Assembly (NCBI GenBank): GCA_046331705.1
Contig: JAXLQJ010000008.1
Span: 1-64,000 of the forward strand
Length of the DNA stretch: 64,000 nt
Direction of reading: 5' to 3'
From: a bacterium
Lineage (GTDB): Bacteria > JADJOY01
Positions within the stretch are counted from its first letter, which is position 1. Every line of letters begins with the position of its first letter. A model generated the notes under the pieces. That model was not told the DNA's origin. It made no database searches and worked only from the letters and a program-made list of their open reading frames with translations. The position numbers and the translations under genes are program-made. Of the stretch, positions 20,945 to 38,046 are shown in pieces.

Positions 20945-21816
20945 CCACCTATCGCGTCGACCACGTCACCCGCTACGCCTACGCGACCCCAGTCGCGGCC
21001 AGCCTCAATCAAGCGCACATCACTCCGCGCAACGGCCCCTATCAGGTCTGCCTCACGAGCCGCGTCCGCATCGACCCCAACCCCGCCGACTCGAGCATCC
21101 GCCCCGACTACTTCGACAACACGGTCACCTACTTCAGCATCCAGGAGCCCCATCGCGAGCTCTCGATCGCGGTCTCGAGCATGGTCGAGGTCTCGCGCCG
21201 TCCGTTTCCGCCGCCGCCCTCCACCACGCCCTGGGAGCGCGCGCGGCGCGTGCTGACGATGGACACGAGCCCCGGCGCGGTGGTGGCGCGGCAATTCGTG
21301 TTCGAGTCGGACTTCGTGCCCGTCGACGCCGAGCTGGTGGCCTACGCATCGCGCTCGTTCCCGCCTGGCCGGCCCATCCTGGAAGCCATCATCGATCTCA
21401 CCGAGCGCATCCGCGCCGAGTTCGTCTACGACCCACGCGCCACGTCGATCGCCACACCGGTCGCCGAGGTGCTCGCGCTGCGCCGCGGCGTGTGCCAGGA
21501 CTTCGCGCACCTCATGATCGGCTGCTTGCGTAGCCTCGGGCTCGCGGCCCGCTACGTGAGCGGCTACGTGCTCACGCGACCGCCGCCGGGCGGCGAGCGC
21601 CTGGTGGGCGCCGACGCCTCGCACGCCTGGGTGTCGGTGTGGTGCCCGGGCTTCGGCTGGATCGACGCCGATCCCACCAACGCGGTGCTGCCGAGCACCG
21701 AGCACATCACCCTGGCATGGGGACGCGACTACGCCGACGTGAGCCCGCTGCGCGGCATCGTCCTCGGCGGCGGCGCGCAATCGCTGTCGGTCGCCGTCGA
21801 GGTCGTGCCGGTCTGA
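20941..21816 (+). CDS. Transglutaminase family protein
   Basis: GTGA overlap; YRVDHVTRYAY, GVCQDFAH, ARYVSGY, ASHAWVSVW..GWIDADPTN, GRDYADVSP. Confidence 0.93.
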   Translation: MTTYRVDHVTRYAYATPVAASLNQAHITPRNGPYQVCLTSRVRIDPNPADSSIRPDYFDNTVTYFSIQEPHRELSIAVSSMVEVSRRPFPPPPSTTPWERARRVLTMDTSPGAVVARQFVFESDFVPVDAELVAYASRSFPPGRPILEAIIDLTERIRAEFVYDPRATSIATPVAEVLALRRGVCQDFAHLMIGCLRSLGLAARYVSGYVLTRPPPGGERLVGADASHAWVSVWCPGFGWIDADPTNAVLPSTEHITLAWGRDYADVSPLRGIVLGGGAQSLSVAVEVVPV

Positions 21817-21883
21817 CCTCGGCGAGTGCTGCGCCGAGCCTCGTGGGCGGGAGAGCGGATCACGAAGCGTCGGTTGCGGCGGC

Positions 21884-23854
21884 TCACCGGAGACGACGAC
21901 TCGTTCGACGGCGCGCGACGGCGAGGGCGGCGAGCGTCGTGAGAACGCACGCGGCGTCGCTTGCGCTCCGCGCCGCCCGGCCCGAAGCGATGGCGCACCC
22001 GCCCGTGGGCGGCGGCGGCGCGATGAGCGCCGCCACGCGTTCGCGCACCGAACGCACCTCCGCTTCCTGAAGCGTCCACGGCGGATCGAAGGGGTTGTAT
22101 GAGGGCGGGATGAAGAACGCTCCCGGCTGCGTGTACGCCTCCGCGACGATCGCGCGCACCGCGTCCTCGCCGGCCACGGCGCTCGCGAGCTTGAACATCT
22201 CCCAATCCTCGAGCCCGTCGCGAGTCGCTTCCAGACGCACCGTGCCGATCGGCCCGTCGATGGCGATGCTCGGCGGCGAGCCGGCGGGGGCCTCGCGGCC
22301 GTCGTGATCGCCGGGATAGAAGAGGAAGCCGTCGCCGTTGCGCGCCACCAGCGGAAAGGCCTCCGGGTCGATGAGCTGGTGCCACGGGTCCTCGGTGACC
22401 CAGCGATTGGTGCGCCAGTAGAGAAAGCCGCTGGCGTGCTCGAACCACGACGCCCACATGAGGATGCGCGGCTCGTAGTTGTACGTGGTGTCGATGTCGT
22501 AGCCCGCGTAGGGCGGGAACGTGCAGTTGCACACGTAGAACCAGAGCTTCTCGCCGAGCGCGCGGCGCGCGTCGTAGACCGCGCGGCCCGGGAACTGGAT
22601 GCCGATCCAGCCCACGAAGAACTCGTCGTAGACCGTGGTGTTCGGCACCCACAGATCGATCGAGCCCTCGAGCCGCGAGTCGAAGTACGAGGTGGAGAGG
22701 AAGTGGCCGGCCCAGTCGGGATCGCCCGCCTTCATGAGCGCCACGTCGGCGACGATGCGCGGATACGCGTCGTTGTCCATCCACGGCTCGTCCTTGGTGT
22801 AGACGTACGCCTTGTCGAACCAGCCCTTCTCCTTGAGATGGTGCGCGAGCGCGGCGGCTGCCGCGGAGTACTGGGCATCGGTGAGACTCGACTGCAATCC
22901 GCCGCTGGTGCCGGGGTCGAAGAACCCGACGTTGAAGCCGGCGATGCCGACGCCATCCTGGTAGTAGCTGCCGTCGAGACGCGGGCCCATGACGGCGTCG
23001 AATTGCGACCAATCCACAGGCAGCAGCTCGCCGGCGCCGTCGAACTGGAACGGCGTCGGTACGCGCTGCGCCGGATCGGTCTGGTCGACGCGATGCCGGT
23101 GGAGCTCCTCGTCGTAGTTCTGGAGCGCGGCCAGCCCATCCGCGTCCCACGTGCCGTCCGGCCCACCGTGGAAGTCCAGCACGGCGTTCCACGACAGGCC
23201 GTAGGCGGTCTGAATGGTTCGCTCCCGCGGGATCGCGAAATCCCACACGGTGAGCTGAACGGGCACGGCAACCGCATCGCGGCCCGCGGCAGTCACGGTG
23301 AGAGTGCCTTCGTAGACGGCCGAGGGCGTGTCCTCGGGAACGTCGACCGTCACCCAGATCGGCTGGGCGCGCCCCGCGGGCACGTCGAAGGGCGCTCCGA
23401 GCGGCGGGTGCGCGGGGTCGTACGGGTCCTGGAACGGGATCAGGGGATCGGGATACTCGCCGACGGCGCGCGGGTTGAGCAGCACGCCGCCGAGGAACGA
23501 GGGCAACGTGACGGTCACGAAGTCCTCGCGATAGAGCCGAACCCGGTCCGCGCCAATCCCGTGACCCGCCGCGTCCCGGAGCTCGCCGATGCTCGCGTCG
23601 ACACCGCTCAATCCGGTGTCGCCGCCGTGCACCACCACCTGAAAGCCCTCGCTCTCGTTGCGCGCCGCCGCGAACGCGGCCGGGCCGAGCGGAAGGACCG
23701 GATCGTCGGGAAACACCCGCGCCGTTGCCGGCCGCACCCACACCGAGAACGAAGCCGCCGATGCCGGCCGTGCCGTGCTCGTGACGATACCCACCAGCGC
23801 CAGCGCGATGGCCGCCCAGTGGTGCCGCGCCATCACCGTCGTGACTGAACTCAT
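21884..23854 (-). CDS. Secreted DUF4091/GH123-like glycoside hydrolase with MYXO-CTERM-like tail
   Basis: Signal peptide; AARNESEGFQ, DEP, GFLYW, NGDGFLFYPG, RLEATRDGLEDWE; C-terminal PPPPTGGCAIA...LAALAVARRR. Confidence 0.8.
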   Translation of the reverse strand: MSSVTTVMARHHWAAIALALVGIVTSTARPASAASFSVWVRPATARVFPDDPVLPLGPAAFAAARNESEGFQVVVHGGDTGLSGVDASIGELRDAAGHGIGADRVRLYREDFVTVTLPSFLGGVLLNPRAVGEYPDPLIPFQDPYDPAHPPLGAPFDVPAGRAQPIWVTVDVPEDTPSAVYEGTLTVTAAGRDAVAVPVQLTVWDFAIPRERTIQTAYGLSWNAVLDFHGGPDGTWDADGLAALQNYDEELHRHRVDQTDPAQRVPTPFQFDGAGELLPVDWSQFDAVMGPRLDGSYYQDGVGIAGFNVGFFDPGTSGGLQSSLTDAQYSAAAAALAHHLKEKGWFDKAYVYTKDEPWMDNDAYPRIVADVALMKAGDPDWAGHFLSTSYFDSRLEGSIDLWVPNTTVYDEFFVGWIGIQFPGRAVYDARRALGEKLWFYVCNCTFPPYAGYDIDTTYNYEPRILMWASWFEHASGFLYWRTNRWVTEDPWHQLIDPEAFPLVARNGDGFLFYPGDHDGREAPAGSPPSIAIDGPIGTVRLEATRDGLEDWEMFKLASAVAGEDAVRAIVAEAYTQPGAFFIPPSYNPFDPPWTLQEAEVRSVRERVAALIAPPPPTGGCAIASGRAARSASDAACVLTTLAALAVARRRTSRRLR

Positions 23855-24086
23855 TGCGTCTCCCGTGACTGCGAGCGATGACGACTCTCCATCGTCTCAC
23901 GAGCGCGCGACCGGCGTCAGCAGCGCCCCGGATCCGTCGTGCGCCGAGGGTGGGGACGCGCGCGGTGCCGGTCGTGCGCCGCGGGCCCGGGCTCAGGTTC
24001 GGACCGGCCGCCGCCGATGAGAGATCCGAGAGCACGGCGCGCGCTCGCACGCGCGCGCCGCGCGCGACGACGCCCATCGAACCGCC

Positions 24087-25655
24087 ATGTCCGCGCTGCG
24101 TGTCACCGACCGCGTCGTCCTCGACCGCCGAGCCGATCGCTATTTCTCGTTCCCCGACGTGACCACGCTGGCCGATGGCCGGGTGCTGGCGGCCTACCGC
24201 ACCGCCAACGTCCACTATCCGCCCGATCCGGCGAGCACCTTCATCCGCTTCCGCCACGGCTCGCGCGACGGGCTCGTGTGGTCCGAGCCGTGGGAGCTCG
24301 CCGAGCGGCCGGCGAACCTCGAACGCACCTGGTTCGATTGCCCGCGCTTGCGCACGCTCGCCGACGGCACCGTGGCGATGACGTTGAATCTGGGCGGCAG
24401 CCCGGGGCCGGGCGGCATCGTCGAGAGCACCTGGCTCACGTTCAGCCACGACGGCGGCCGCACCTGGGAGCCGCTTCGCGAGCTGCCGCTGGTGGGCATC
24501 GTCCCCGATCGCGTGCTGATCCGCGACGGCGGCCATTGGATCGTCTCCGCTCACTACCACGTGCCGTCGGGGCCCTATCGCCTGGTGCAGAAGTGCATCC
24601 TGAGCGACGACGCCGGGCGCACGTGGAGCCCGGAGATCCAGCTCGCGGGCGATCCGGCGCTCCAGCTCTGCGAGGTGAGTCTGCTCGATCGCGGCGCGGG
24701 GCGGATCGACGCGTTTCTGCGTGAGGACCAGGGCATCCGCTACCCGACGCTCTGCGCCAGCTCGTTCGACGGCGGACGGAGCTTTGGTGCGCTCGAGGCG
24801 CATCCGAGTCGCGGCCACCGCATCACCACCGGGCTCCTTCCCGATGGAAGGATGCTCGCCACGTATCGCAACGTGGCGGGGCTGCCGGCGACCTGCGGTT
24901 GGCTGGGATCGCCGGATGCCCGAGGAGCCGTCGCCTCGGGAGTGCTCCTCGAGCCCGCCGTCGCAGCGCTCGTCGACGGCTCGCTGGTGCTCGACACCGA
25001 GGGCGGCGGTGCCGTCGAGTTCGGCCACGACCCCATCGAGTCGCTCGCCGAGAGCACGCTGGCGATCGAGGCCGAGGTACGCGTGCTCGCCGCGGAGCGC
25101 TGCGCCGCCGTGCTCCGCGGTGGTGCCGTGTTGCGCCTCACCCCGGACCAGCTCGAGCTCGACGCGTGCGGGGATCTGGCGCCGTACGTCCACGCCGTCG
25201 ATCTCACGTGCTGGCGTCGCATCCGCCTGACGCTCACCAACGCCACGGTGGCGGTGGCCCTCGACGGCCGTCTGCTCTTCGCCGCTCCGCTCGGCCGGGA
25301 CGTGCCGAGGGGCGCGCGCGTCGTCGCCTTCGGCAACGCGCCGACGGCCGCGCGCGGCGCCTATCGCTATACGGAGAACGCTGGCCGCTCGCTGTGGCGA
25401 TCGGTGGCGATCGAGGTGGTCAATCCGCGGCTGCCTGGGTATCGATGGTGCTGGTCCGCGGCGAGCGGGCGCATGCCCGACCACGAGGAGCGCGAGCACC
25501 AATCGGTGCTGTGGCTCGAATCCAGCGGCCAGATCTTCGATCACGGCTACACGGGATGGACGCTGCTTCACGACGGCCACGTGCTCGTCGTCAACTACGC
25601 TCGCGGCGCCGATCCCAAGCCCGTCATCCACGCGTACCGCGTCGCCGTCGACTGA
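24087..25655 (+). CDS. BNR/Asp-box sialidase-like beta-propeller protein
   Basis: YFSFPDV, Asp boxes SRDGLVW, SHDGGRTW, SDDAGRTW, SFDGGRSF; C-terminal DHGYTGW; no signal peptide. Confidence 0.8.
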   Translation: MSALRVTDRVVLDRRADRYFSFPDVTTLADGRVLAAYRTANVHYPPDPASTFIRFRHGSRDGLVWSEPWELAERPANLERTWFDCPRLRTLADGTVAMTLNLGGSPGPGGIVESTWLTFSHDGGRTWEPLRELPLVGIVPDRVLIRDGGHWIVSAHYHVPSGPYRLVQKCILSDDAGRTWSPEIQLAGDPALQLCEVSLLDRGAGRIDAFLREDQGIRYPTLCASSFDGGRSFGALEAHPSRGHRITTGLLPDGRMLATYRNVAGLPATCGWLGSPDARGAVASGVLLEPAVAALVDGSLVLDTEGGGAVEFGHDPIESLAESTLAIEAEVRVLAAERCAAVLRGGAVLRLTPDQLELDACGDLAPYVHAVDLTCWRRIRLTLTNATVAVALDGRLLFAAPLGRDVPRGARVVAFGNAPTAARGAYRYTENAGRSLWRSVAIEVVNPRLPGYRWCWSAASGRMPDHEEREHQSVLWLESSGQIFDHGYTGWTLLHDGHVLVVNYARGADPKPVIHAYRVAVD

Positions 25656-25778
25656 CGCGCACCGGCGGCGCAGCGGCGCGAGCCGCGCGGAGCGCGTTGG
25701 CCGTGCGAGCGCGCCGTCGGTCGTCCTTGCAGCCGAGCGCTCGGCGCACCTAATAATGCGGGCTCTCGGGGAGACGCG

Positions 25779-26396
25779 ATGATCACGAGCGGGGTTCGGT
25801 TTCTGGCGAGTTCGGTGCTCGGGCTCGCGCTGGTGAGCGGGTTGGGCGCCCGCGCCGCCGCGGCGGAAGCAGCGAACGCAACGAAGTTCCGCTATCTGGA
25901 CCGGAGCGGACAGCCGGCGCTCACGCTCGAGGTGCGCGAGGGCGCCGTCGACGTGAGCGACGGCAAAGGCGTTCGCGTGGGGACGATCAAGCTCGGCGAC
26001 GATCGCGTGAAGTTTCGGGATGCGAGCGACGTCGAGCGTCTCAAGGTGAAGCGCAAGGAGAACGGCGCCGAGATCGAGGACGGCGCCGGCACCCGGCTCT
26101 ACCGCGTGAAGCTCAAGGACGAGGGCAAGATCGAGATCGAGGACGCTTCGGGCCGCACGGTCGCCAAGGCCAAGCCGAAGGAATCGGGCTTCGAGGTGCG
26201 GCGCGAGAGCGGCGACACGATCGCCAAGGTCAAGATCCGGCCCGGCAAGCTCGTCTTCGAGACCGAAGGCGGCGAGCGCATCGGCGATCTCGATGGCGCG
26301 AGCGACGCGCGCGCCGGTGTCTGGCTCGCGGTCGACCAGCTGCCGATCCCGGAACGCGCCGCGCTCTGGGCCTACTTCGCGAAGGTGGCGCCGTGA
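25779..26396 (+). CDS. Secreted hypothetical protein with ~20-aa beta-hairpin repeats
   Basis: Signal peptide; repeated units such as IEDGAGTRLYRVKLK, IEDASGRTVAKAKPK, VRRESGDTIAKVKIR. Confidence 0.75.
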   Translation: MITSGVRFLASSVLGLALVSGLGARAAAAEAANATKFRYLDRSGQPALTLEVREGAVDVSDGKGVRVGTIKLGDDRVKFRDASDVERLKVKRKENGAEIEDGAGTRLYRVKLKDEGKIEIEDASGRTVAKAKPKESGFEVRRESGDTIAKVKIRPGKLVFETEGGERIGDLDGASDARAGVWLAVDQLPIPERAALWAYFAKVAP

Positions 26397-26692
26397 GCTG
26401 CGGCGAGCGCAGCGGCTTTCTCTTCGCGCACGCCTGCGATCGCCCGGCGACGGGCTCGTGCTTCTCGTGCGGCAAGCCGATCTGCCTCTTGCACACGCGG
26501 CCCTCGGCCGATGGAGCGAGCGCGCTCTGCGTCACGTGCGCGGCCGCGCAGGGCCCCCTCGCGCAGGACGATCCCTATCGCGACCGCGCCTCCACCTACG
26601 ATTCCGACGACTATCGGGCCTTCGACGATACCGCCGACTCGACCGACGCCGGCGTGGGAGACGACTACGAATCCGACCCCAGCGCGAGCTGA
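26393..26692 (+). CDS. Small Cys/His (B-box-like) Zn-finger protein with Asp/Tyr/Ser/Thr-rich tail
   Basis: GTGA overlap; C3-x11-C-x7-CxxC-x4-CxxH-x11-CxxC; acidic C-terminus. Confidence 0.7.
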   Translation: MSCGERSGFLFAHACDRPATGSCFSCGKPICLLHTRPSADGASALCVTCAAAQGPLAQDDPYRDRASTYDSDDYRAFDDTADSTDAGVGDDYESDPSAS

Positions 26693-27704
26693 GGCGAGAG
26701 GCTCGCGCGGCGTCGTCTACTACGCCCTCGGTGGCGGCCATGGGCACGCGCTGCGCGGCCTCGCGCTGCTCACCCGTCTCGGCTACGGCACGATCCTCCT
26801 CCCCGAGCGTTTGGCGCCGTGGGCGCACGCGCTCGGAGTCGAGTGCCTCGTCGCTCCCGACGGCGGTGGCGCACCGGCCGAGCTGCTCGCCGGCGTGCGC
26901 AACCCGGGCTTGCTGCTGGTCGACGTCTTCCCGCGCGGAGTCGTGGGGGAGCTCGGCCCCTGGCTTCGACGCGCCGAGGCGAGCTGGCTCATCGGCCGGC
27001 AGCTACGGCCGGGCTACTACTTGCACGCGCCGGTGCGCGCGGCGATCGAGTCGCATTACCAGCGGATCGTGTGGACCGAGTCGCCGCCAGCGGAGCTCGA
27101 CGAGATCGCGGTTCCCGCGCAGCGAATCGCGCCCGTGCTGCTGGCGCCGTCGCCGCTCGAGCGCAGCGAGGCTCGCGACGCGCTCCACGTGGGTGCGGGC
27201 GAGCGGCTGCTGCTCGGCATCGGCAGCGGATCCGCGGCCACCCAGGCACGCATGGCACGGCTGCTGGCCAAGCTTGCGCAACGGCTGGGCCTGGCGTTCC
27301 GATTCGTCAGCCACGAGCTCTCGGCCTCCGCGGGTGGCGTCGCGCTCTTTCCGCTGGCGCGCTTCCTCGCGGCTGCCGACGTCGCCGTGGCAGCGGGCGG
27401 CTACCACGCGTTCCACGAGCTGGCGGCGGCGAACGTCCCCACCGTGTTCGTCCCGCAACGGCGGCGACACGACGATCAAGCGTTGCGGGTGGCGGCAGCG
27501 CCGCGGGCCCGCGACCCGATCGAGCTAGAGCGCGCCGTCGCGCGCTTGCTCGCCGCCAGCGACGCTCGAGCCGCCGACGGTGAGCGCCGCCGCTTCGTCG
27601 CCGCGCCCGATGCCGGCGCCCGCGCCCTGGCCGCGCTCGTCGAGGGACGCGTGCAAGAGCGCGTTCTCGGGCAGGAAGAGATCGCAACGGCGGCATGCCG
27701 ATAG
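26688..27704 (+). CDS. GT-B glycosyltransferase (MurG/GT28/SpsG-like); start codon unclear
   Basis: VVYYALGGGHGHALRG, LLLVDVFPRG, ADVAVAAGGYHAFHE, DDQALR. The only in-frame ATG is at 26511, inside the upstream gene. Confidence 0.75.
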   Translation, partial: AEARGSRGVVYYALGGGHGHALRGLALLTRLGYGTILLPERLAPWAHALGVECLVAPDGGGAPAELLAGVRNPGLLLVDVFPRGVVGELGPWLRRAEASWLIGRQLRPGYYLHAPVRAAIESHYQRIVWTESPPAELDEIAVPAQRIAPVLLAPSPLERSEARDALHVGAGERLLLGIGSGSAATQARMARLLAKLAQRLGLAFRFVSHELSASAGGVALFPLARFLAAADVAVAAGGYHAFHELAAANVPTVFVPQRRRHDDQALRVAAAPRARDPIELERAVARLLAASDARAADGERRRFVAAPDAGARALAALVEGRVQERVLGQEEIATAACR

Positions 27705-28703
27705 CGCTCGCCCCGCCAGGAACTCGCGGCGCACCGCGGCGAAACGCGGCCCCTCGAAGATCTCCCGGACCGAGTCCGTGCCCAGGTTCCCCAACGACTC
27801 CATGCGGCCGTTGGTCATGCAGCAGAGGAACGTGTCGCCGTTCCAGGCGAAGAACGCGTGCAGCCACGGCGCCAGGCACGCCCGCCGATCGAAGAATCCG
27901 CGCGCGTAGAGCCCTTTCGACGAGAGCCCGATCTCTTCCTCGGTCACGCCGAACGGGTAGACCCGCGCGGGATCGGTCGGGAACCCGTAGCGTCGACGCA
28001 GCTCGAGCACCCGCGGCGCGATCTCGCGGTTGTACGCGCGGATCTGCGAGCGCGTGAGGCGTCCGCGCCGCTCGCCTTTCTCGTCGATGGGCATCGGCAC
28101 CAGATCGGTGGCGCCGAGCTCGCCCGCCAGTCGCACGGCCTCCGGCAGCTCGCGGAAGTTGCTCGCCATGATCACGAAGTTGATCCGGACCTTCACCCCG
28201 GATCCGTAGCGCTTGATCCAGCGCACCGCGGCGAGCGAACGCCGAAACGCACCGCGCCGACCGCGAATCGCCTCGTGGGTGGCGGCGTCCGCGCCGTCGA
28301 GTGAGATCGACACCGCGTTCACGCCCAGGGAGGCGATGCGCTTGGCCGCGTCCTTGGTGACCAGCGTGCCGTTGGTGGTGAAGTTGACCTTGAGATCGTG
28401 GCGCGTCGCCGCCTCGACGAGATCGAGGAAGTCGCGGCGCAGGAACACCTCGCCGCCGGAGAAGTGGATCTTGCGGCAGCCCAGGGCGGGAAGCTCGGCG
28501 AACACCTCCCGCCAGCGCTCCGAGCCGAGCGTGTCCTCGCGAGTGGTCTTCCAGTACTTGCACATCGTGCAGCGCAGATTGCAGCGCGACGTGAGCTTGA
28601 TCTTGATGCAGCGCAACGCGGGCGGCGGCGCGTCGCCCGCGAGGCTCGCCCCGAGCGACGCGAGGAAGTCCCGATCGCGAACGAGCTCGGGAACGGCGTA
28701 CAC
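27525..28703 (-). CDS. Radical SAM protein with C-terminal SPASM/twitch domain
   Basis: GTG at 28703 just after the upstream stop; CNLRCTMC, FSGGE, TTNG, SLDG; C-terminal CLAPW...LCC...GNL...CRRC. Confidence 0.92.
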   Translation of the reverse strand: MYAVPELVRDRDFLASLGASLAGDAPPPALRCIKIKLTSRCNLRCTMCKYWKTTREDTLGSERWREVFAELPALGCRKIHFSGGEVFLRRDFLDLVEAATRHDLKVNFTTNGTLVTKDAAKRIASLGVNAVSISLDGADAATHEAIRGRRGAFRRSLAAVRWIKRYGSGVKVRINFVIMASNFRELPEAVRLAGELGATDLVPMPIDEKGERRGRLTRSQIRAYNREIAPRVLELRRRYGFPTDPARVYPFGVTEEEIGLSSKGLYARGFFDRRACLAPWLHAFFAWNGDTFLCCMTNGRMESLGNLGTDSVREIFEGPRFAAVRREFLAGRALSACRRCDLFLPENALLHASLDERGQGAGAGIGRGDEAAALTVGGSSVAGGEQARDGAL

Positions 28704-28705
28704 GT

Positions 28706-29563
28706 TCAGGCGGCCTTCGCCGCGCCGCGGCCCAGCCCGTAGTAGGCCCAGCTCAGCATCGTGAGGATCGTCGTTCCCGAGCCGAGGCGAGGCACACCCT
28801 GGAACGCCGCCGAGGTGCCGCGGCCGTTGCTGCGGCGCGCCGCGGGAGTGCGGACCGCGAGGAAGAGCCGCCGGCCGCGGCCGCGCTTCACGCGCTCGTT
28901 GCACCACGAGAGATCCGGGTGGTGGCCGAGGCGAGGGATCACCTGCTCGGCCGGGCCGTAACGCTTGTCGAGCCGCAGCAACAGCGAGACGTCGCTCACG
29001 AACGTCTCCTTCACCTTCACGTACTTCCGCTTCGGCTTCGACTTGCGGGAGACGCGATCGGTGATGGCGGCGTCCACGGCGGTGCCGTCGGCGAGCGTGG
29101 TGCGGACCTCGAGCCATTTGTGCAGGTATTTCTCGGGCTGCCCGGGCTTGGCCTTGGCTTTGGCCTTGGGGGCCGCCGGATCGACTCGCTTGGTGCCCGC
29201 CTGGTGGTACTCGCGGAAATCGAGCAAGAGCTGGATCGGCTCGGCGGCGGGGACGTCGGCGCGCAACGTGCGAATCAGCTCGATGGCGGCGTCGAGCTTG
29301 CGGTCGTCGACGTCGTGTCCATGCTCGCGGGCGACCAGCGCCAGCACCGGAACGACGAGCAAGAGCCCCAGGAACGGCAGCTTCGAGCCGAGCTGCTCGG
29401 ACCAGTAGCCGAGGCCGAGGCCGCCGCCCACGACCATCGCGAGGGCCGTGGCACAGCCGATCTTGATGCGCTTCTCGGCCTGATCGTCGCGCACGGCGGC
29501 CGCTTCGAGGCGCGCCAAGAGCGTGTCGGCGGGCTCCGACAAGCGGTGCAGGATCTTCTTCAT
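28706..29563 (-). CDS. Hypothetical membrane protein (2 TM helices plus basic soluble domain)
   Basis: ATG at 29563 with GGAGGA RBS; two hydrophobic segments followed by DVDDRKLD and a K/R-rich domain. Confidence 0.7.
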   Translation of the reverse strand: MKKILHRLSEPADTLLARLEAAAVRDDQAEKRIKIGCATALAMVVGGGLGLGYWSEQLGSKLPFLGLLLVVPVLALVAREHGHDVDDRKLDAAIELIRTLRADVPAAEPIQLLLDFREYHQAGTKRVDPAAPKAKAKAKPGQPEKYLHKWLEVRTTLADGTAVDAAITDRVSRKSKPKRKYVKVKETFVSDVSLLLRLDKRYGPAEQVIPRLGHHPDLSWCNERVKRGRGRRLFLAVRTPAARRSNGRGTSAAFQGVPRLGSGTTILTMLSWAYYGLGRGAAKAA

Positions 29564-30702
29564 CCGCCGATCCTCCGGGGCGCGGACGCGCCGATTCGTT
29601 CGAGCGCGGCCCCAAGCCTCTCGCGGAACGCGCTGACGGTAAAGCGGGATTCGACGACCGCGCGAGCCCGAAGCCCCATGGCCTCGCGCTCCTCGGGATT
29701 CGCCAGGTGCCAGGCGATTCCGTCGGCGAGCGCCGCGGCGCTGCCCGGCACGACCAGCCGCGCGGTGTCGCCGTCGCTCAAGATCTCCTCCACCGGCGCG
29801 ATGCGCGTGGAGAGGATGGGCCGCCCCGCGGCCATGTATTCGAGGAGCTTGATCGGACAGCACCCCTGCAAGGCGTTGCGCGGATCGGCGGCGAGCGGCG
29901 CAACGCACAGGTGCGCGGTCGCGAGCACCGCCGGAAGATCGCGCTGCTCCATCGGCCCCGAGAGGTGCAGCGCCTGGTGGACCCGCAACCGGCGAGCGTG
30001 CGCGCGCAGTGCCCGCCGCCAGCTCGCCTTGAGCGGCCCCACCACGTGCAGCTCGGCGAGCCCGCGACCACGCGCGAGTGCCAGCGCCTCGAGCAGCGTT
30101 CCGAGTCCCTGCCACGGCGAGAGCGTGCCCTGATAGACGATCCGAAACGGCGGCGTGGCAGGCGGTGGGAGCGGCGGCGGCACGAACTGCGTGACGTCGA
30201 CGCCGTTCGGGATCACCGCGACGCGCTCGGGATCGGCACCCATGCGGCGCACGAAGAGCGCGGTGGTGCCAGACGGCACGAGCAAGCCGTCGACTCCCGT
30301 CGCCAGCGCGCGCTCCTCGTCGATGATCTTGCCCAGCAGGCGCTCGTTCCCGCGCAGTCGCGGATGGTGGTAGCTGAGCTCGACCGAGGGGAAGCCGTGC
30401 GCTTCCCAGATCGCTCGCCCGCCGCTGCGACGCGCCCACTCGAGCGCCGCGACGCCTTCCCAGATCCCCCGGAACTGCACCACGTCGGCGCGGCGCGCGG
30501 CGAGCCAGTCGCGGGTACGCGCGCGAAACGCGATCATCCGCTCCAGGAAGTTCCCGCTCGCCGGCGAGTCGTCGGTGGCGGCGGGCGTGAGATGGTCGAC
30601 CTCGTGACCGAGAGCGCGAAAGGCGTCGAGCGTGAGACCGATCCGAACCCCGGCCCCTTTCGGCGAGGGATAACGGTCGCTCGTGACGTAGAGGATCTTC
30701 AC
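29560..30702 (-). CDS. Glycosyltransferase family 4
   Basis: GTGA-coupled start VKILYVTSDRYPSPKGAG; IPNGVD; PIKLLEYMAAGRPILST. Confidence 0.9.
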   Translation of the reverse strand: MKILYVTSDRYPSPKGAGVRIGLTLDAFRALGHEVDHLTPAATDDSPASGNFLERMIAFRARTRDWLAARRADVVQFRGIWEGVAALEWARRSGGRAIWEAHGFPSVELSYHHPRLRGNERLLGKIIDEERALATGVDGLLVPSGTTALFVRRMGADPERVAVIPNGVDVTQFVPPPLPPPATPPFRIVYQGTLSPWQGLGTLLEALALARGRGLAELHVVGPLKASWRRALRAHARRLRVHQALHLSGPMEQRDLPAVLATAHLCVAPLAADPRNALQGCCPIKLLEYMAAGRPILSTRIAPVEEILSDGDTARLVVPGSAAALADGIAWHLANPEEREAMGLRARAVVESRFTVSAFRERLGAALERIGASAPRRIGG

Positions 30703-31844
30703 GCGAGCAGCCCGCGCCACACCGCCAGGTGGGCGTCGCGCTCGGCTTCGACGGTGAACGCGCGCGCGACTCGCTCGCGAGCAGCCACGCCCACCTGGGC
30801 CAGACGCGCGGGGTCCTCCGCCAGCAGCTCGAGCGCGCGCTCCGGGAACGCGTCCAACCCGGCCGGATCGACGAGAAAGCCGCTCACGCCGTCCTCGATG
30901 GCATCGCCGATCCCGCCGACCCGCGTGGCGAGCACGGGCCGCGCGCACGCCATCGCCTCGAGGACGGCATTGGGCAGCCCGTCCCAGAGCGAGGGGAACA
31001 CGAAGAGATCCATGGCGCCGTAGAGCCGTGCCAGGCGCGCGGGGTCGCGCTCGAAGGGCAGCACGACGATGCGCTCGCGCGCCGCAGCGCTCAGCCTCGT
31101 CCACGGCTCGTCGCGCGCCGCGTCCGCACGCAACCCGCCGAGGCAAACGAGCGTGCCGCGACGCTCGGCGGCGAGGGCGGTCGCGACCGCTTCGAGCACC
31201 GGCAACCCTTTCTTGAGCCGCAGCTCGCCGGAAAACGCGACCCATGGTCGCGGCGCCGCGGCGAGCAGCGTTGGGATCGCGCCGTCCACGCCGCCAGCGC
31301 CCGGAGCGAAGCGCAGGACGTCGACTCCATTGGCGATCCGGTGGAACCCCTCGCTTCGTCCCGAGACGGCCCTCGCCTTGGCGAGAATCTCGTGGGACAC
31401 GCCGACGATCGCGTCCGCGTGCGCGAGCACGAACGACAGCCACGCGAAACGCGGCCCGTGGAAGAGCGCGCGATCGACGTCGTTGCCGCGCAGGCTGACG
31501 CACACCGGCCGCCCGGCCGTGCGCGCCACACAGGTCGCGACGTGGCCCGCCGGCACGGCGAAGAAGCCGTGGACGAGGTCGTATCGCGCCGCGCGCAGCA
31601 GGTTCTCGGCGGTGGCCGCGAGAAGCTGAAGGGACTCGGCGTCGTCGGCGCTACGACCGACGCGAGCGCGTCGGTAGCCATCGCCCTCGCCGACGTCGAC
31701 CCGACCCGCAGGAAGCTCCGCCGTCAAGCCGAGCACGTCGAGTCGCTCGCAATGCGGCGCGAGCGCCGCGACCTGTCGCCCTGCCGAGACCGCCGCCCCG
31801 CCGCGATCCGGCGGAAACCGCTCGCTGATCCAGAGCACCCGCAT
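30699..31844 (-). CDS. Glycosyltransferase family 4
   Basis: MRVLWISERFPPDRGG, IANGVD, FVFPSLWDGLPNAVLEAMACARPVLATRVGG. Confidence 0.92.
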   Translation of the reverse strand: MRVLWISERFPPDRGGAAVSAGRQVAALAPHCERLDVLGLTAELPAGRVDVGEGDGYRRARVGRSADDAESLQLLAATAENLLRAARYDLVHGFFAVPAGHVATCVARTAGRPVCVSLRGNDVDRALFHGPRFAWLSFVLAHADAIVGVSHEILAKARAVSGRSEGFHRIANGVDVLRFAPGAGGVDGAIPTLLAAAPRPWVAFSGELRLKKGLPVLEAVATALAAERRGTLVCLGGLRADAARDEPWTRLSAAARERIVVLPFERDPARLARLYGAMDLFVFPSLWDGLPNAVLEAMACARPVLATRVGGIGDAIEDGVSGFLVDPAGLDAFPERALELLAEDPARLAQVGVAARERVARAFTVEAERDAHLAVWRGLLA

Positions 31845-31883
31845 CGCGCGGCAAGCGTAGCAGTCCTGCGACGGTGGCAGCAC

Positions 31884-31928
31884 CGGCGCCGCTGCGCACG
31901 GCGCCGCTGCGCACGGTGCCGCTGCGCT
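31884..31928. repeat. Intergenic tandem repeat, 3 x 15 bp (CGGCGCCGCTGCGCA)
   Basis: Copies at 31884-31898, 31899-31913 and 31914-31928 (third copy has 2 mismatches). Confidence 0.8.
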
Positions 31929-31941
31929 CCGCCGTCGCGGA

Positions 31942-33897
31942 CTACTGCTTGAGCGGCCGGGTCAACGTGTCCGCGAAGAGATCGGCGATCTGGCCGAGGG
32001 GAACCGTCAGACCAAGACGCAGGTTCCAGGGGTTCGGATCGAGACCCGAACCGAGCAGCAAGCTCGAACCGAGCACGAGATACCCCTGAGACCCGAACGG
32101 CGCCTGCACTTCCATGTCCATGCTCACGCCCGTCCCCGTCTCGAATCCCGGCAACCCGTCGTCGTTCACGATCGCTGGGCGCTTCTTCCCTGCATCCAGC
32201 ACCACGGGCTCATCGGCCAGATCGGGGATGGACGCACGCGTCCAACCGAACCGCATCGCGATCTCGTAGACGCGTGGCTTGTAGGTCTTGGGCTGGTCGA
32301 GCGACGGCAGCGGCATCGGATCGAGCAGCAAACCCACGATGAACGCGCCACCCACCACGAATCGTTCGTGGATGTCCTGAACGCCGCGATCGGTGACCGC
32401 CTCGTAGAGAATCTCGGCGTTGAGCGCGGTGCTCATGCGCGAGTACTGCTCGTCCTTGTTCTTGATCGGCAGCAGATGGTCGGTGTGCAGCAAGGGCCAA
32501 CCGACGGCCGCGCTGCCGTTCACGTCGCCGGAGCCGACCACCGTCGATGCGGTGGTCTTGTCTTGCGAGTTGAACGTGACACCGAAACGCAGGTCGTAGT
32601 CCGAGGGGAAGAAGCAGCTCACGAGCGGGGCAAGCCTCCACGTCTCCACGCTGGCGATGTCGCCGTCGAGACAGAAAGCTCGCCATTGCTCCGAGACCGG
32701 CACGCTCGAGGGTGAAGGTTGGGCACGATTCCGAGCGCGCGACGCCTCAGAGCCCTCCGCATCCGAACGCGGGCCCGAGTCTTCGAGCGGTTGCTCTGCG
32801 CCACCGCCGGCTCGCAGGAACGTATCGGCCGCGTCGACGGTGCGCCCGAATTCGAGCCCGAGCTCACGCGCCGCGGTCTTGCCCTTGGTGACTCGCTTCA
32901 GTGCCGTGGCGAGCTTGCCCTCGTCGACGTCGACGTCGGCCAGCTTCAGCTGAGACTCGAGCGATTTCTCGCCGATCTCGGCCATCGTGAGTCGCGCTCG
33001 ATTCCAGCCGAGCCGGTAGCGATAGCGGGCCTCGAGGTAGGCGCGAGTCGAGACATCGGCGCCATCGAGATAGAAACGCTCGTCCTTCTGCTCGCCTTGG
33101 CCGTTGGCGTCGGGAGACGAGCCGGGCAGCGTCTTGATCGCGAACGGGGCGAGACTGACCACGCCCGAATGAACGAAGAAATGCTCGGTGTTGAAGCCCG
33201 GCTCCTGGAAGGCCTTCACGCGCGCCACCTCCGTCTCGCGAACCGTCTTGGCGGGCGCGTACGCGTCGCGGGCCTTGATGGCCAGATCTTCGGCGTCCTT
33301 GACCCCCTTGCCGGCCTTCCGCGCCTCGATCCACTTCGAAACCGCTCCTTGCCATGCTTCCGCGAGCGACTTGGCGATCGTCGCCGCGCTGCGGACGACC
33401 TCGGGCTGGTCCTTCGCCGCCTCGACGGCCTTGGTCTCCGCTTTCACCGCGGCATCGGCATCCGCCTTCATCTGTTCGGGGCTCTCGGCCTTGAGCGCTG
33501 CATCCGCGGTGTCGAACACCGACTGCGCAGCCTCGGTCTCGGTCTTCCCATCCGTAGCCGATTTCTCCTTCGCACCATCCGCCGCGTTCGCGGCCCAAGC
33601 GTCCGCAGCGGTCTTCCACGCGCTGGCTGCGGCTTGCCAGTCCTTCGCGCCCTTCACGGCGGTTTGGGCGAGATTCTTGAGATGGGTGTCTTCCTTCTCC
33701 CCATCCAGCGTGGGCTGGACGCGTTCGAGCGCCTTCTTCGCGGCCTCCCCCGCGCTGGTCGCGAGAGCCTGCATCTGCGCCGGAGTGATCGACGCCGCAG
33801 CGCTCGCCAGTCGCCGATCGCCCAACGCCAAAGCGAGCAGCAGCCCGACATGCGCCCAGGCGCGATGCGGACGGTGAGGAAGAGACGCGCGCCGCAT
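31942..33897 (-). CDS. Exported hypothetical protein: A/K-rich helical N-domain plus possible beta-barrel C-domain
   Basis: ATG at 33897 with AAGGAG RBS; signal-like N-terminus; helical repeats; C-terminal amphipathic strands. Confidence 0.7.
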   Translation of the reverse strand: MRRASLPHRPHRAWAHVGLLLALALGDRRLASAAASITPAQMQALATSAGEAAKKALERVQPTLDGEKEDTHLKNLAQTAVKGAKDWQAAASAWKTAADAWAANAADGAKEKSATDGKTETEAAQSVFDTADAALKAESPEQMKADADAAVKAETKAVEAAKDQPEVVRSAATIAKSLAEAWQGAVSKWIEARKAGKGVKDAEDLAIKARDAYAPAKTVRETEVARVKAFQEPGFNTEHFFVHSGVVSLAPFAIKTLPGSSPDANGQGEQKDERFYLDGADVSTRAYLEARYRYRLGWNRARLTMAEIGEKSLESQLKLADVDVDEGKLATALKRVTKGKTAARELGLEFGRTVDAADTFLRAGGGAEQPLEDSGPRSDAEGSEASRARNRAQPSPSSVPVSEQWRAFCLDGDIASVETWRLAPLVSCFFPSDYDLRFGVTFNSQDKTTASTVVGSGDVNGSAAVGWPLLHTDHLLPIKNKDEQYSRMSTALNAEILYEAVTDRGVQDIHERFVVGGAFIVGLLLDPMPLPSLDQPKTYKPRVYEIAMRFGWTRASIPDLADEPVVLDAGKKRPAIVNDDGLPGFETGTGVSMDMEVQAPFGSQGYLVLGSSLLLGSGLDPNPWNLRLGLTVPLGQIADLFADTLTRPLKQ

Positions 33898-34090
33898 GGA
33901 ATCGCTCCTTTGCCGACATCCGCGGAAGCTGCGAGCCGGCCCATCGGTGGAACAATTTAGGTGGTGCGCTCTTACCAATCGCACGCCCCTCGGTCAAGCA
34001 AGACCGATCCGCACGCGCCGATCACGAAAGCCGCCGCAACCGCGAGCGCGCGGTGCGGCGGCACGCGTCGGATCGCCGGAGCGAGCGGGG

Positions 34091-35056
34091 TCACTGCGTC
34101 CAGGACACGAACACCACGCGCGGCTCGCGTCGGCCACCGCCCACGTCGGCGTGGCCGATGGCGGCGTAGACGCCCCAGTAATAGGGGATCAGATCGGCTC
34201 CGCCGGGATTGTGGAGGCCGTTCCAGCCCTCGCCCACCCACGGTCCGGTTCCGACGCGCGAGCACGCCGAGAGCGGCGTCGTGCCGCAGAGCGCGTAGCC
34301 TTCGCCGTAGGGCTTGCCGTCCGCGCCCTCGAAGTTCCCGCCCGAATAGAAGAGGTGGTAGTTGCCGTCGCCGCCGGTCACCAGGCTCGGCGCTTCGACG
34401 GTCCCCGCCTCCCAGCTGCCGCGATCGGCCGAGAGCAGCGTGGTGACTCCAGTGGCACAACCCAGCATGTCGCTACGCAGTCGGCAGCCCTGGATCTTGC
34501 GGGTCACGCTGCTGTATCGGCCGTAGCGCCCCCAGTCCACGCTCCACAGCAGGTAGTAGTTGCCGTTGTAGTCGTAGACCACGTCGGGATCGATGACGCC
34601 GTTGTGGCTCGGATCGCGGTAGACGGGCCCGCCGCCGATCGGCGTGAACGGTCCGCCGGGCTTCGAGCTCTGCGCCACACCGATCGCGTGCTCGCCGAAC
34701 GGGCTACCGTCCCAGGCGACCGTCGCTGCGTAGAAGAGATAGTAGGTCGAGCCCTTCAGCACGACCTCCGGACCCCAGAAGTGCCCGAGCGCCCACGACG
34801 GCGCGGTCGGCAGGGCCTCGGTGATGCCGCTCCAGCTCGCCCCCGTGAGCGACGAGGAGGCGTAGTGGGGAATCCGGAAATAGCCCCAATTCGTCGCGAA
34901 CAGGTGGTACTGGCCCGCGCCGTAGATCACGCCGGGGTCCGCGAGGTTGGTGCCGGGGAGAATCGTCGACGGTGTCGACGGGGACCAGCAGGCCGAGAGC
35001 GCCAAGCATGCGAGCGCCACCGACGCGAGAGACCGCTTCCGAGCCTGTCGTTTCAT
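34091..35056 (-). CDS. Glycoside hydrolase family 43-like lipoprotein
   Basis: Lipobox LSAC; ADPGV, WGPEV, IDPDV and EAPSL catalytic-type motifs. Confidence 0.87.
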   Translation of the reverse strand: MKRQARKRSLASVALACLALSACWSPSTPSTILPGTNLADPGVIYGAGQYHLFATNWGYFRIPHYASSSLTGASWSGITEALPTAPSWALGHFWGPEVVLKGSTYYLFYAATVAWDGSPFGEHAIGVAQSSKPGGPFTPIGGGPVYRDPSHNGVIDPDVVYDYNGNYYLLWSVDWGRYGRYSSVTRKIQGCRLRSDMLGCATGVTTLLSADRGSWEAGTVEAPSLVTGGDGNYHLFYSGGNFEGADGKPYGEGYALCGTTPLSACSRVGTGPWVGEGWNGLHNPGGADLIPYYWGVYAAIGHADVGGGRREPRVVFVSWTQ

Positions 35057-35275
35057 TGCGACCCTTCCGTGCGTGGATGTTGAACCGGGACGACGATCGT
35101 CCGGCGCGCACGAGCAATCCCCACGCCAACGCGATTCGCGACGCGCCCGCGCTGACGCACGCGCGAGCGCCCATCGAGCGCGCGCCCGAGTGCGCCGACA
35201 CGCGCGTTGGCGCCGCCTCCGGTTGGCGCGAGCGCCAACCCGCGATGGCGGCGAAACACGCCGCCGCGAGGCGCC

Positions 35276-35944
35276 TCAAGCGTTCGCGGTCGCGCCCGAG
35301 GCGCGACAGGCGCCGTCCACGATCAGGTACTGGGCCAGGTAGTAGGTCGCGTAGCCGGTGAGCACCAACGGAAGCGCCGGACGCGCGAGCACGAAGAAGT
35401 TGATGGGGATGTGGGAGTCGGAAAGCACGAACACGGCAGCGCCCCAGGCGATCCGGGCCGTCGACGCACGGTGGACCAGCGCGGCGACGGTCATGGCGCC
35501 GAGGATCGCGACGTAACCGATCACCGGCCACGCGACCGACCGCCCGTCGACGATCGGATCGCTGACGCCCACCCACGCCGCGGCGCACACGCAATAGAGA
35601 ATCGTGGCCGCGATCGAGATCGCGCGGCGCCTCCACAGCGCCGCGTCGCGCCGTCGCAAGAACGCGACGATGTACGCCAGATGACCGACCAGAAACGCCA
35701 CCATGCCTGGAACGAAGAGCCTCGGTGACGCGGTCGCGAGGAGAAAATCGCCCACCGATCCCATCGCCACGCCGAGCGTCACCGCGACGCCGTAGCCGGG
35801 GCGCGAGCCGCGCGCGGCCACCGCGACGAGCAAGGCCGTGGGAGCCGCCTTGAGCACCTCGATCCCCGCGAACGGCGGTACGAGACTGCTCGCGACCGAC
35901 ACCAGCGCGAGCGCGAGGTACGCGAGACGAGCGGCTGGGGTCAT
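35276..35944 (-). CDS. YhhN-like / lysoplasmalogenase family membrane protein
   Basis: GSVGDFLL, GMVAFLVGHLAY, GAAVFVLSDS, TYYLAQYLI. Confidence 0.88.
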   Translation of the reverse strand: MTPAARLAYLALALVSVASSLVPPFAGIEVLKAAPTALLVAVAARGSRPGYGVAVTLGVAMGSVGDFLLATASPRLFVPGMVAFLVGHLAYIVAFLRRRDAALWRRRAISIAATILYCVCAAAWVGVSDPIVDGRSVAWPVIGYVAILGAMTVAALVHRASTARIAWGAAVFVLSDSHIPINFFVLARPALPLVLTGYATYYLAQYLIVDGACRASGATANA

Positions 35945-36067
35945 GAGATCGGCGACGCGGCGCGCGCGCACGGACTTCGCCGGGCGGCGCGCGAGCCGAG
36001 CCGCGCTCGGGCACGCCCGCCGAACCGTCGAGCCTTCATCGCCCGGCGAGGGAAGTCGCGCGAACCC

Positions 36068-38046
<1,979 letters not shown>

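Follow-up and report, generated by a model that had tools for sequence, protein, structure and literature searches.

A recurrent gene set, here in two convergent operons, encoding glycosyltransferases, a small acidic protein and an optional radical SAM enzyme, as a candidate membrane-associated glycosylation system

A block of seven genes lies at positions 25779-31844 of a 64,000-nucleotide stretch of DNA, hereafter the window, which belongs to contig 8 of an 8.17-Mb metagenome-assembled genome (MAG) estimated to be 95.7% complete. The genes, called A to G here, form two tightly coupled operons that converge tail to tail, as an earlier note on this DNA had described from the letters of the sequence, and all seven open reading frames (ORFs) were confirmed. 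The window has a G+C content of about 70%, and spurious ORFs therefore abound in it; the seven ORFs of the block are nevertheless backed by homologues and by their tight coupling. The block recurs as a unit in distant bacterial lineages, and we tentatively read it as a membrane-associated glycosylation system in which the small protein B takes part as acceptor or carrier.

On the plus strand, A (25779-26396) encodes a protein of 205 amino acids (aa) with a signal-peptide-like N-terminus followed by hairpin repeats. It is followed by B (26393-26692; 99 aa), whose GTG start overlaps the stop codon of A in the sequence GTGA, and by C (approximately 26700-27704; about 334 aa), which comes directly after the stop of B and is translationally coupled to it. 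The minus-strand run reads G-F-E-D and consists of translationally coupled genes: G (30699-31844; 381 aa) is the first gene, F (29560-30702; 380 aa) shares a GTGA overlap with G, E (28706-29563; 285 aa) shares an ATGA overlap with F, and D (27525-28703; 392 aa) begins after a gap of 2 nucleotides (nt) following E. The 3' ends of C and D overlap convergently by 180 nt (27525-27704), and the tail of D that falls within this overlap is not conserved among D orthologues. Among the window proteins, Pfam placed Radical_SAM and SPASM domains on D and GT4 models on F and G, and no Pfam family was found on A, B, C or E at E ≤ 0.01. None of the seven proteins reached an NCBIfam equivalog cut-off.

The block sequence was confirmed by independent assemblies. 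Contigs from an RNA library map to 26635-26908 and 29910-30294, a weak hint that the block is expressed. An Rfam scan of 20000-38000 gave no match, and a promoter search at the locus returned no promoter-like site and two terminator-like sites against 2.4 expected, which is uninformative. At position 31484, inside G, one base is absent from some contigs of three DNA runs, amounting to about one-third to one-half of the summed depth. In the run X1, the contig concerned matches only about 35 nt of the window, so that this signal may come from another organism.

The block is maintained well beyond the genome in which it was noticed. Three genomes of the same genus (G001, G003 and G004) keep it at 54-87% protein identity within different flanks, the full gene set was seen in a same-genus genome (L014), and in G002 at least B is present, on a small contig. 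The host phylum comprises six genomes in the reference set, and E is present in four of them; a 100% complete genome of another genus (G005) lacks E, C and B as well as any D orthologue. E is a rare protein, for which a word-indexed search retrieved 24 proteins, one of these relatives being labelled Vicinamibacteria by NCBI. Scans with an E alignment led to 16 loci, which are partly redundant (L016-L018 correspond to G001, G003 and G004, the window has an identical twin in L022, and L028 has the same score as L019); D directly follows E in 13 of them, and two of the other three offer no downstream space for it.

Outside the phylum, an unrelated metagenome contig (L026) carries the full A-to-G set, with D 63% and E 33% identical to the window proteins, and a MAG of the Armatimonadota (L021) contains G, F, E, D, C and B. 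The arrangement is broken up elsewhere. In an unplaced genome (G041), E-D lies on one contig and A-B-C on another, and in a member of the Pirellulaceae (G042), E-D-A occupies one site and B-C another, between the ATP synthase operon and dnaE; the A gene thus accompanies either E-D or B-C in other genomes. The system is accordingly present in at least four lineages, namely the six-genome candidate phylum of the window, the Pirellulaceae, the Armatimonadota MAG and the unplaced genome. Because the genes co-occur and are reshuffled together across phyla, they represent one conserved unit rather than a chance neighbourhood. As a separate observation, a distant E-D locus (L031, 3497-6182) has a gene for an NAD-dependent sugar epimerase/dehydratase and a gene of the UDP-glucose/GDP-mannose dehydrogenase family directly downstream, the only locus with linked nucleotide-sugar genes among those read.

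This pattern bears on the most mundane explanation, according to which the block is part of an ordinary exopolysaccharide or lipopolysaccharide neighbourhood or a chance juxtaposition of two operons. GT4 enzymes are common at polysaccharide loci, and weak NCBIfam rows of F and G include EpsE, WcaL and PEP-CTERM glycosyltransferases. However, these rows lie far below their cut-offs, no Wzx, Wzy, ABC exporter or priming transferase gene occurs in or beside the block, and joint reshuffling across phyla contradicts chance juxtaposition. Flippase, polymerase and nucleotide-sugar genes are likewise missing from the block, as the earlier note had stated, and from its flanks. We regard this explanation as highly improbable. 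The earlier note had proposed to look for the two operons in other genomes and for a match of the enzymes to a known polysaccharide pathway. The operons were found together in L014, L026, L021 and a survey of 301 Pirellulaceae genomes, and the enzymes showed no such match by NCBIfam equivalog, by PADLOC, where the hit was generic, or in the literature.

The survey of 301 Pirellulaceae genomes provides a phylogenetic profile of the individual genes, obtained with E-value thresholds of our own choosing and by scoring the best 5-12 candidates per genome. E was detected in 20 genomes, B in 19 and C in 19; an F orthologue was present in 22, including 20/20 with E, and a G orthologue in 21, including 19/20 with E. 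E, B and C occur together in 18/301 genomes, all of which contain F and 17 of which contain G, so that all five are found in 17 genomes. The exceptions are few: one genome has E, B, F and G (G044), one E, F and G (G218), one C only (G306), and two F and G only (G277 and G315). Fifteen of the 18 genomes have E and C on one contig, separated by no more than about 4 kb.

The distribution of D is markedly different, with an orthologue in 5/301 genomes, all five of which also carry E, B and C. In the Pirellulaceae, the genes are usually found together in a single operon. Among eight loci that were fetched from this family, four are colinear as E-D-A-B-C and four are without D; one of the latter reads E-A-B-C with F and G adjoining, one has three tandem E paralogues, and there are two others. 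At L047 (3745-8617), three tandem E paralogues of 453, 306 and 367 aa lie around a single A and a single B, before a single C, and no radical SAM gene is present. A genome-wide search of the four D-less genomes found no D orthologue at E ≤ 1e-25, the positive control scoring 1.8e-140. The core of the system therefore consists of E, A, B, C, F and G, and D is a system-specific accessory. Since most carriers have no D (it occurs in 5 of the 301 genomes, compared with 18-20 that carry the system), this radical S-adenosylmethionine (SAM) enzyme is not the centre of the system, and its role as a hub was rejected, also in view of the four carriers in which it was not found.

D scored 99.6 bits against Radical_SAM (PF04055; cut-off 29.5) and 41.4 bits against SPASM (cut-off 21.5), and the motif CNLRC..C together with five further cysteines (C..G....CC ... 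C..C) is retained in 9/9 orthologues. A full SPASM domain has a seven-cysteine motif that includes CX2CX5CX3C, and D, with five conserved cysteines, falls short of it. The radical SAM/SPASM label of the earlier note agrees with the superfamily and the domain match, and the cysteine pattern points to a twitch-like, partial SPASM C-terminal domain instead of the full set. The best solved relative of D is BlsE (72 bits), restricted to the core at residues 31-198, and the BlsE equivalog gives 73 bits against a cut-off of 400 bits. The best NCBIfam rows, of the PqqE, AhbD, StsB and MftC types, reach 106.6-106.9 bits, whereas their listed cut-offs are 170-725. When present, D always stands directly after E; its isoelectric point (pI) is 9.6 both in the window and in the Pirellulaceae protein. 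PADLOC reported a generic viperin-core match on D (77 bits) and nothing on A, B, C, E, F or G, and an anti-phage defence system was rejected on this ground. The D query matches 43 places in the window's own genome (G000) and 33-42 in genus and family mates; the host phylum is very rich in radical SAM genes.

The mini-protein B combines a nearly invariant, zinc-finger-like Cys/His head with an acidic, tyrosine-rich tail. In an alignment of 34 sequences, the head retains C3, H13, C15, C23, C26, C31, H34, C46 and C49 and the stretch RSGFLFAHACD, and the tail shows the motifs DDPY(F/W)Y and YD.DDYRAFD (or ..DF(T/S)EAD..) and a terminal ..AS. The pI of the window protein is 4.16 (tail, 4.05), and that of Pirellulaceae B is 4.7. 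With E ≤ 1e-3 as threshold, a profile search yielded 566 clusters (at 50% identity), and its top 150 hits, all of them 53-247 aa long, include no B-C fusion. Serine is the last residue in all 15 of the commonest C-terminal triplets, which account for 116/148 B sequences read. At the loci compared, B is always directly upstream of C, and at L043 a stop codon separates A from B. The B profile matched no solved structure below E 0.36.

A small protein with a conserved C-terminus beside a radical SAM enzyme raises the idea of a ribosomal-peptide pathway akin to those of pyrroloquinoline quinone (PQQ) or mycofactocin. D would cross-link or oxidise a tyrosine of the B tail, and the glycosyltransferases would decorate the phenol of the released cofactor or natural product. 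The maturase types of the best NCBIfam rows of D, all below their cut-offs, the tyrosine-rich tail of B with its conserved motifs and conserved last residue, and the parallel of mycofactocin, where according to passages of PMC3023750 a C-terminal CGVY is likewise invariant and the cluster includes a glycosyltransferase, fit this idea. Nevertheless, D occurs in 5/301 genomes and B in 19/301, four carriers searched directly gave no D, Pfam detected no PqqD/RRE domain in D or E, and none of the linked genes encodes a peptidase. Moreover, the zinc-finger part of B, 50 residues long, is conserved to a much greater degree than leader peptides usually are. Such a pathway consequently appears very unlikely.

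The partner encoded directly downstream of B is identifiable through remote likeness. C homologues share an invariant glycine-rich loop (G-loop), GGG.GH..RG, which reads GGGHGH in the window, and the family profile matches the solved enzymes Kcn28 (E 6.2e-5), MurG (1.4e-4) and YjiC (4e-4), with the segment ..PQRR.DDQ.. aligned. The window protein has no Pfam hit and obtains 17.2 bits against the MurG NCBIfam model, the cut-off of which is 250 bits. Among 90 homologues found, some are named YjiC-type by JGI and two carry PF04101; at near lengths they mostly measure 286-369 aa, and two weak hits are longer (527 and 579 aa). C is thus best described, on these remote resemblances, as a putative MurG/GT1-like glycosyltransferase of the GT-B fold. 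F and G are assigned more directly. F scored 78.4 bits against Glyco_trans_1_4 (cut-off 27) and 62 bits against Glyco_transf_4 (cut-off 28.5), and G scored 87 and 43 bits, respectively, both above cut-off; G also matches PF20706 at 48.5 bits, a weaker match than its generic GT4 matches. The best solved relatives of F are an MshA-like enzyme and the sucrose-phosphate-synthase-like Tll1590 (E 1e-9), and those of G are GlgM (6tvp; E 3.8e-19), followed by PimB', MshA and BshA. Of the three glycosyltransferases announced for the cluster, two are supported by Pfam, and the third is a putative one by its likeness to distant families.

The start of C is unusual. Its sole in-frame start codon is an ATG at 26511, which would overlap B by 182 nt, and no ATG, GTG or TTG for C lies between 26511 and 26811, although the conserved N-terminus begins a few codons after the stop of B. 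The C gene of L026 shows the same gap in start codons, and 13 of the 86 gene calls read among the 90 homologues place the start within the G-loop or beyond it. Three DNA runs, from three studies, yield contigs that span the B-C junction without a gap, and the missing start of C is thus not an assembly slip. A programmed frameshift joining B to C was also considered and rejected, as the frame of C relative to B is +1 in the window, L026 and L021 but -1 in L017.

Structure prediction of the two proteins together, each with its own alignment, gave a score of 0.71 for the B-C complex against 0.01 for the best of three controls. At the 0.71 mark, a benchmark recovered 116/157 solved complexes and 2/215 mismatched pairs, counts that apply only roughly here because our own alignments were used. 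Contact agreement between the B-C runs was at least 40%, and the partner reached a confidence (predicted local distance difference test, pLDDT) of at least 62. The predicted interface involves residues 68-69, 72-77, 79-80 and 92-93 of B, corresponding to the conserved YD.DDYRAFD motif, and residues 77, 81, 181-195, 251-257 and 270-274 of C, which belong to both lobes and flank the invariant F77, Q182, P252 and R255. As B has no solved relative by sequence, the score is unlikely to reflect a memorised structure. The model supports binding of B to C, with the conserved acidic Tyr/Phe motif predicted to sit in the cleft of C, and it fits the suggestion, made before any of these analyses, that the mini-protein is a partner or substrate of the enzymes.

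E is predicted to be the membrane component. Its model (pLDDT 84.8) has a strand at the N-terminus, a pair of long hydrophobic helices and an alpha/beta domain, and invariant positions include DxDDRK, D103, P105, D115, R117, W150, D159, G160, R173, K174, K176, K178 and K183. The invariant Lys/Arg-rich motif RK.KPKRK is modelled in the turn between strands 162-177 and 182-197. E is strongly basic, with a pI of 10.2 in the window (10.4 for the cytoplasmic part) and 9.4 in the Pirellulaceae. The hairpin falls into two types, RK.KPKRKYTKV at D-linked loci and RSRTKRSASGK.KHK.KT at D-less loci. The fold matched no solved one: Foldseek returned no match in the PDB at E ≤ 0.001, and the best VIA-wide alignment (Z 7.6) covers the helical hairpin only, with SycN-YscB (1xkp_B) reaching Z 6.9 on the C-terminal domain, within noise. 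No solved structure was matched by the E profile below E 0.29, and no NCBIfam family was assigned. In the ESM Atlas, look-alikes fall into clusters with 55-137 members, most of which come from Myxococcota and Chloroflexota.

These properties have also led us to consider E as the modified target. The Lys/Arg-rich tip of the hairpin would be glycosylated, and radical-modified in lineages with D, and B would serve as an acidic chaperone or adaptor; elongation factor P, which carries a modified hairpin, offers an analogy. Consistent with this, conservation in E is highest in the hairpin, which is modelled between two long strands, its sequence splits into D-linked and D-less types, D always stands directly after E, and at L047 one B and one C accompany three E paralogues in tandem. 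However, it is the motif of B, and not E, that is modelled in the cleft of C, and Lys/Arg-rich loops are unusual glycan acceptors. We consider a modified E unlikely.

The exported protein A was resolved further than the sequence had allowed. The earlier note had described a secreted repeat protein; the signal-peptide-like start and the hairpin repeats stand, and the AlphaFold model (pLDDT 86.8) refines them to 14 strands forming a hairpin barrel closed around a C-terminal helix. VIA-align superposed it on the LURP-one protein At5g01750 (2q4m_A) with Z 9.7 and a root-mean-square deviation of 3.2 over 127 residues, and on Tubby (1i7e_A) with Z 9.2 and a deviation of 3.2 over 129 residues, both alignments taking in the helix. 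Foldseek matched 1zxu (E 2.5e-4), and the ESM Atlas search matched the LOR family (TM-score 0.49/0.55). A therefore models as an exported beta-flower/Tubby-like barrel, and the Bflower and Tub Pfam models gave no match to it at E ≤ 0.01. Lipoprotein boxes in relatives at L020, L026, L043, L047 and L050 suggest that A is usually a lipoprotein.

The fold of A and the membrane location predicted for E also invite the idea of a lipid-based pathway. In a route to a glycolipid or lipid-linked glycoconjugate, C and the GT4 enzymes would glycosylate an inner-leaflet lipid, with B as an activating or regulatory subunit of C, E as a scaffold or translocation aid, A binding the lipid head group outside, and D tailoring the lipid or sugar. 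Several observations point this way. The solved profile relatives of C include the lipid-acting MurG, G resembles the phosphatidylinositol mannoside enzyme PimB', E is membrane-embedded in its model, and the absence of flippase and polymerase genes would suit a small glycolipid. Furthermore, A has a Tubby/scramblase-type fold, the solved relatives of which bind phosphoinositides or have been named scramblases, as passages of PMC10584680 describe. Nonetheless, this route leaves unexplained a dedicated acidic B whose tail motif is predicted in the cleft of C and whose C-terminal serine is conserved, no lipid-synthesis gene is linked at any examined locus, and Kcn28 and YjiC, the closer profile hits of C, are GT1 enzymes that act on soluble acceptors. 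A lipid product is the leading alternative, which we consider rather unlikely.

Given these alternatives, we tentatively favour, though short of an even chance, a previously undescribed membrane-associated glycosylation system with B as acceptor or carrier; the system probably makes a sugar-decorated product. The proposal starts from the gene set, its co-occurrence, the optional D and the modelled folds of A and E, and every chemical step in it is one that we infer. The system would operate at the cytoplasmic face of the inner membrane, where sugars would be added to an acceptor. B would be this acceptor or carrier, with Y69-F77 docking in the inter-domain cleft of C; C would put the first sugar on the B tail, and F and G would lengthen the glycan. 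The basic hairpin of E may retain acidic B and the enzymes at the membrane, a notion that matches the charge complement between acidic B (pI 4.2 and 4.7 for the window and Pirellulaceae proteins, respectively) and basic E (10.2 and 9.4) and D (9.6 and 9.6). Where present, D would tailor the sugar or the tail by radical chemistry, and A might bind or handle the product, or E, at the outer face. The undescribed glycosylation or modification pathway that had been suggested for this locus has survived both checks proposed with it, and its function continues to be a matter of inference.

Several points weigh against the proposed acceptor role and the system built around it. Pirellulaceae-type tails, with the sequence ..DF(T/S)(E/D)AD.., have another residue in place of Tyr74 of the docked motif, and no hydroxyl residue of the motif is universal. 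The complex model does not discriminate between an acceptor and a regulatory or activating subunit. The near-invariant zinc-finger part of B and the presence of an exported A in a cytoplasmic pathway are both left unexplained by the scheme. E itself could be the target, considering that its hairpin differs between D-linked and D-less loci. In addition, no nucleotide-sugar gene, release enzyme or exporter is linked to the system, related genomes among the 301 are not independent samples, and the evidence is computational throughout.

A more specific version of the proposal treats B as a dedicated carrier. A glycan or glycoside would be built stepwise on its acidic tail by C, F and G at E, tailored by D in some lineages, and then passed across the membrane to A. 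We hold this elaborate version to be unlikely; if true, a sugar product would for the first time be seen to arise by a protein-templated (LysW- or pearlin-like) route.

The surroundings of the block are less constant than the block itself. In the window it is flanked by GH123 and a BNR/sialidase-like protein on one side (21884-25655), and on the other by a family-less ORF of 680 aa, followed by GH43 and YhhN (34091-35971). These flanks are not kept with the block in relatives. The 680-aa ORF (31942-33984, minus strand), which adjoins G, belongs to no Pfam or NCBIfam family and is rich in Ala and Lys over its N-terminal half; genus-mates lack it at their loci, where GH43 or YhhN adjoins G. Regarding the host, the database entry of one genus-mate calls it a 'Deltaproteobacteria bacterium' MAG, and the stretch was found in activated-sludge and wastewater metagenomes from 12 studies, with 18 runs containing at least half of its sampled words.

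The analysis gives the unnamed families A, B and E and the unplaced GT-B family C a shared genetic context. If B is the acceptor, the block would be a compact system for glycosylating a dedicated protein substrate in the cytoplasm, with optional radical tailoring, and its enzyme-acceptor pair is specified sufficiently for a direct test. If the product is instead a glycolipid, the system would point to an unknown constituent of the envelope in planctomycetes and in their neighbours in soil and sludge.

The enzymes belong to known superfamilies, and the gene set as a whole matches no curated family, defence system or paper found; no description of it was encountered in the literature. C shares with MurG (GT28) and the GT1 enzymes YjiC and Kcn28 the glycine-rich N-terminal loop and, by remote likeness, a putative C-terminal domain of the nucleotide-sugar type. 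It differs from them in staying below the Pfam and NCBIfam cut-offs, in its own invariant GGGHGH loop and in always being preceded by B. Twitch radical SAM enzymes keep only a partial SPASM cysteine set, and D shares such a set with the sugar-acting BlsE and BtrN, although its likeness to BlsE is limited to the radical SAM core at residues 31-198. A shares with the beta-flower/Tubby clan the hairpin 'petals' around a C-terminal hydrophobic helix and, in its relatives, lipoprotein boxes; unlike that clan, it has 14 strands and belongs to a glycosyltransferase operon. Lipoprotein signals have also been noted within the clan, in passages of PMC10584680. An eLife paper on conflict systems places radical SAM/SPASM enzymes and glycosyltransferases in vWA-MoxR contexts (passages of PMC7159879); this context was considered for the present block and is absent here.

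Among multi-gene pathways, mycofactocin and PQQ systems resemble the present one in that a radical SAM/SPASM-type enzyme goes together with a glycosyltransferase and with a small protein whose C-terminus is invariant, and they too were recognised by phylogenetic co-occurrence, as passages of PMC3023750 report. In the present system, however, the radical SAM enzyme is optional, the glycosyltransferases are GT4 and GT-B rather than GT2, MftB/PqqD-like proteins and peptidases are absent, and B is a protein of 100-170 aa with a folded head. LysW has a zinc-finger head and an acidic tail, and B shares this outline and a conserved last residue, a likeness of outline only. The two have no sequence relation, the last residue of B is Ser instead of Glu, its partners are glycosyltransferases, and no ATP-grasp gene was seen in the loci read. 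In LysW-type systems, the small protein carries the pathway intermediate at its C-terminal residue, according to passages of PMC12998189. Thus, the system most closely resembles dedicated enzyme-plus-acceptor glycosylation systems, and in outline carrier-protein pathways such as that of LysW, while being a member of none.

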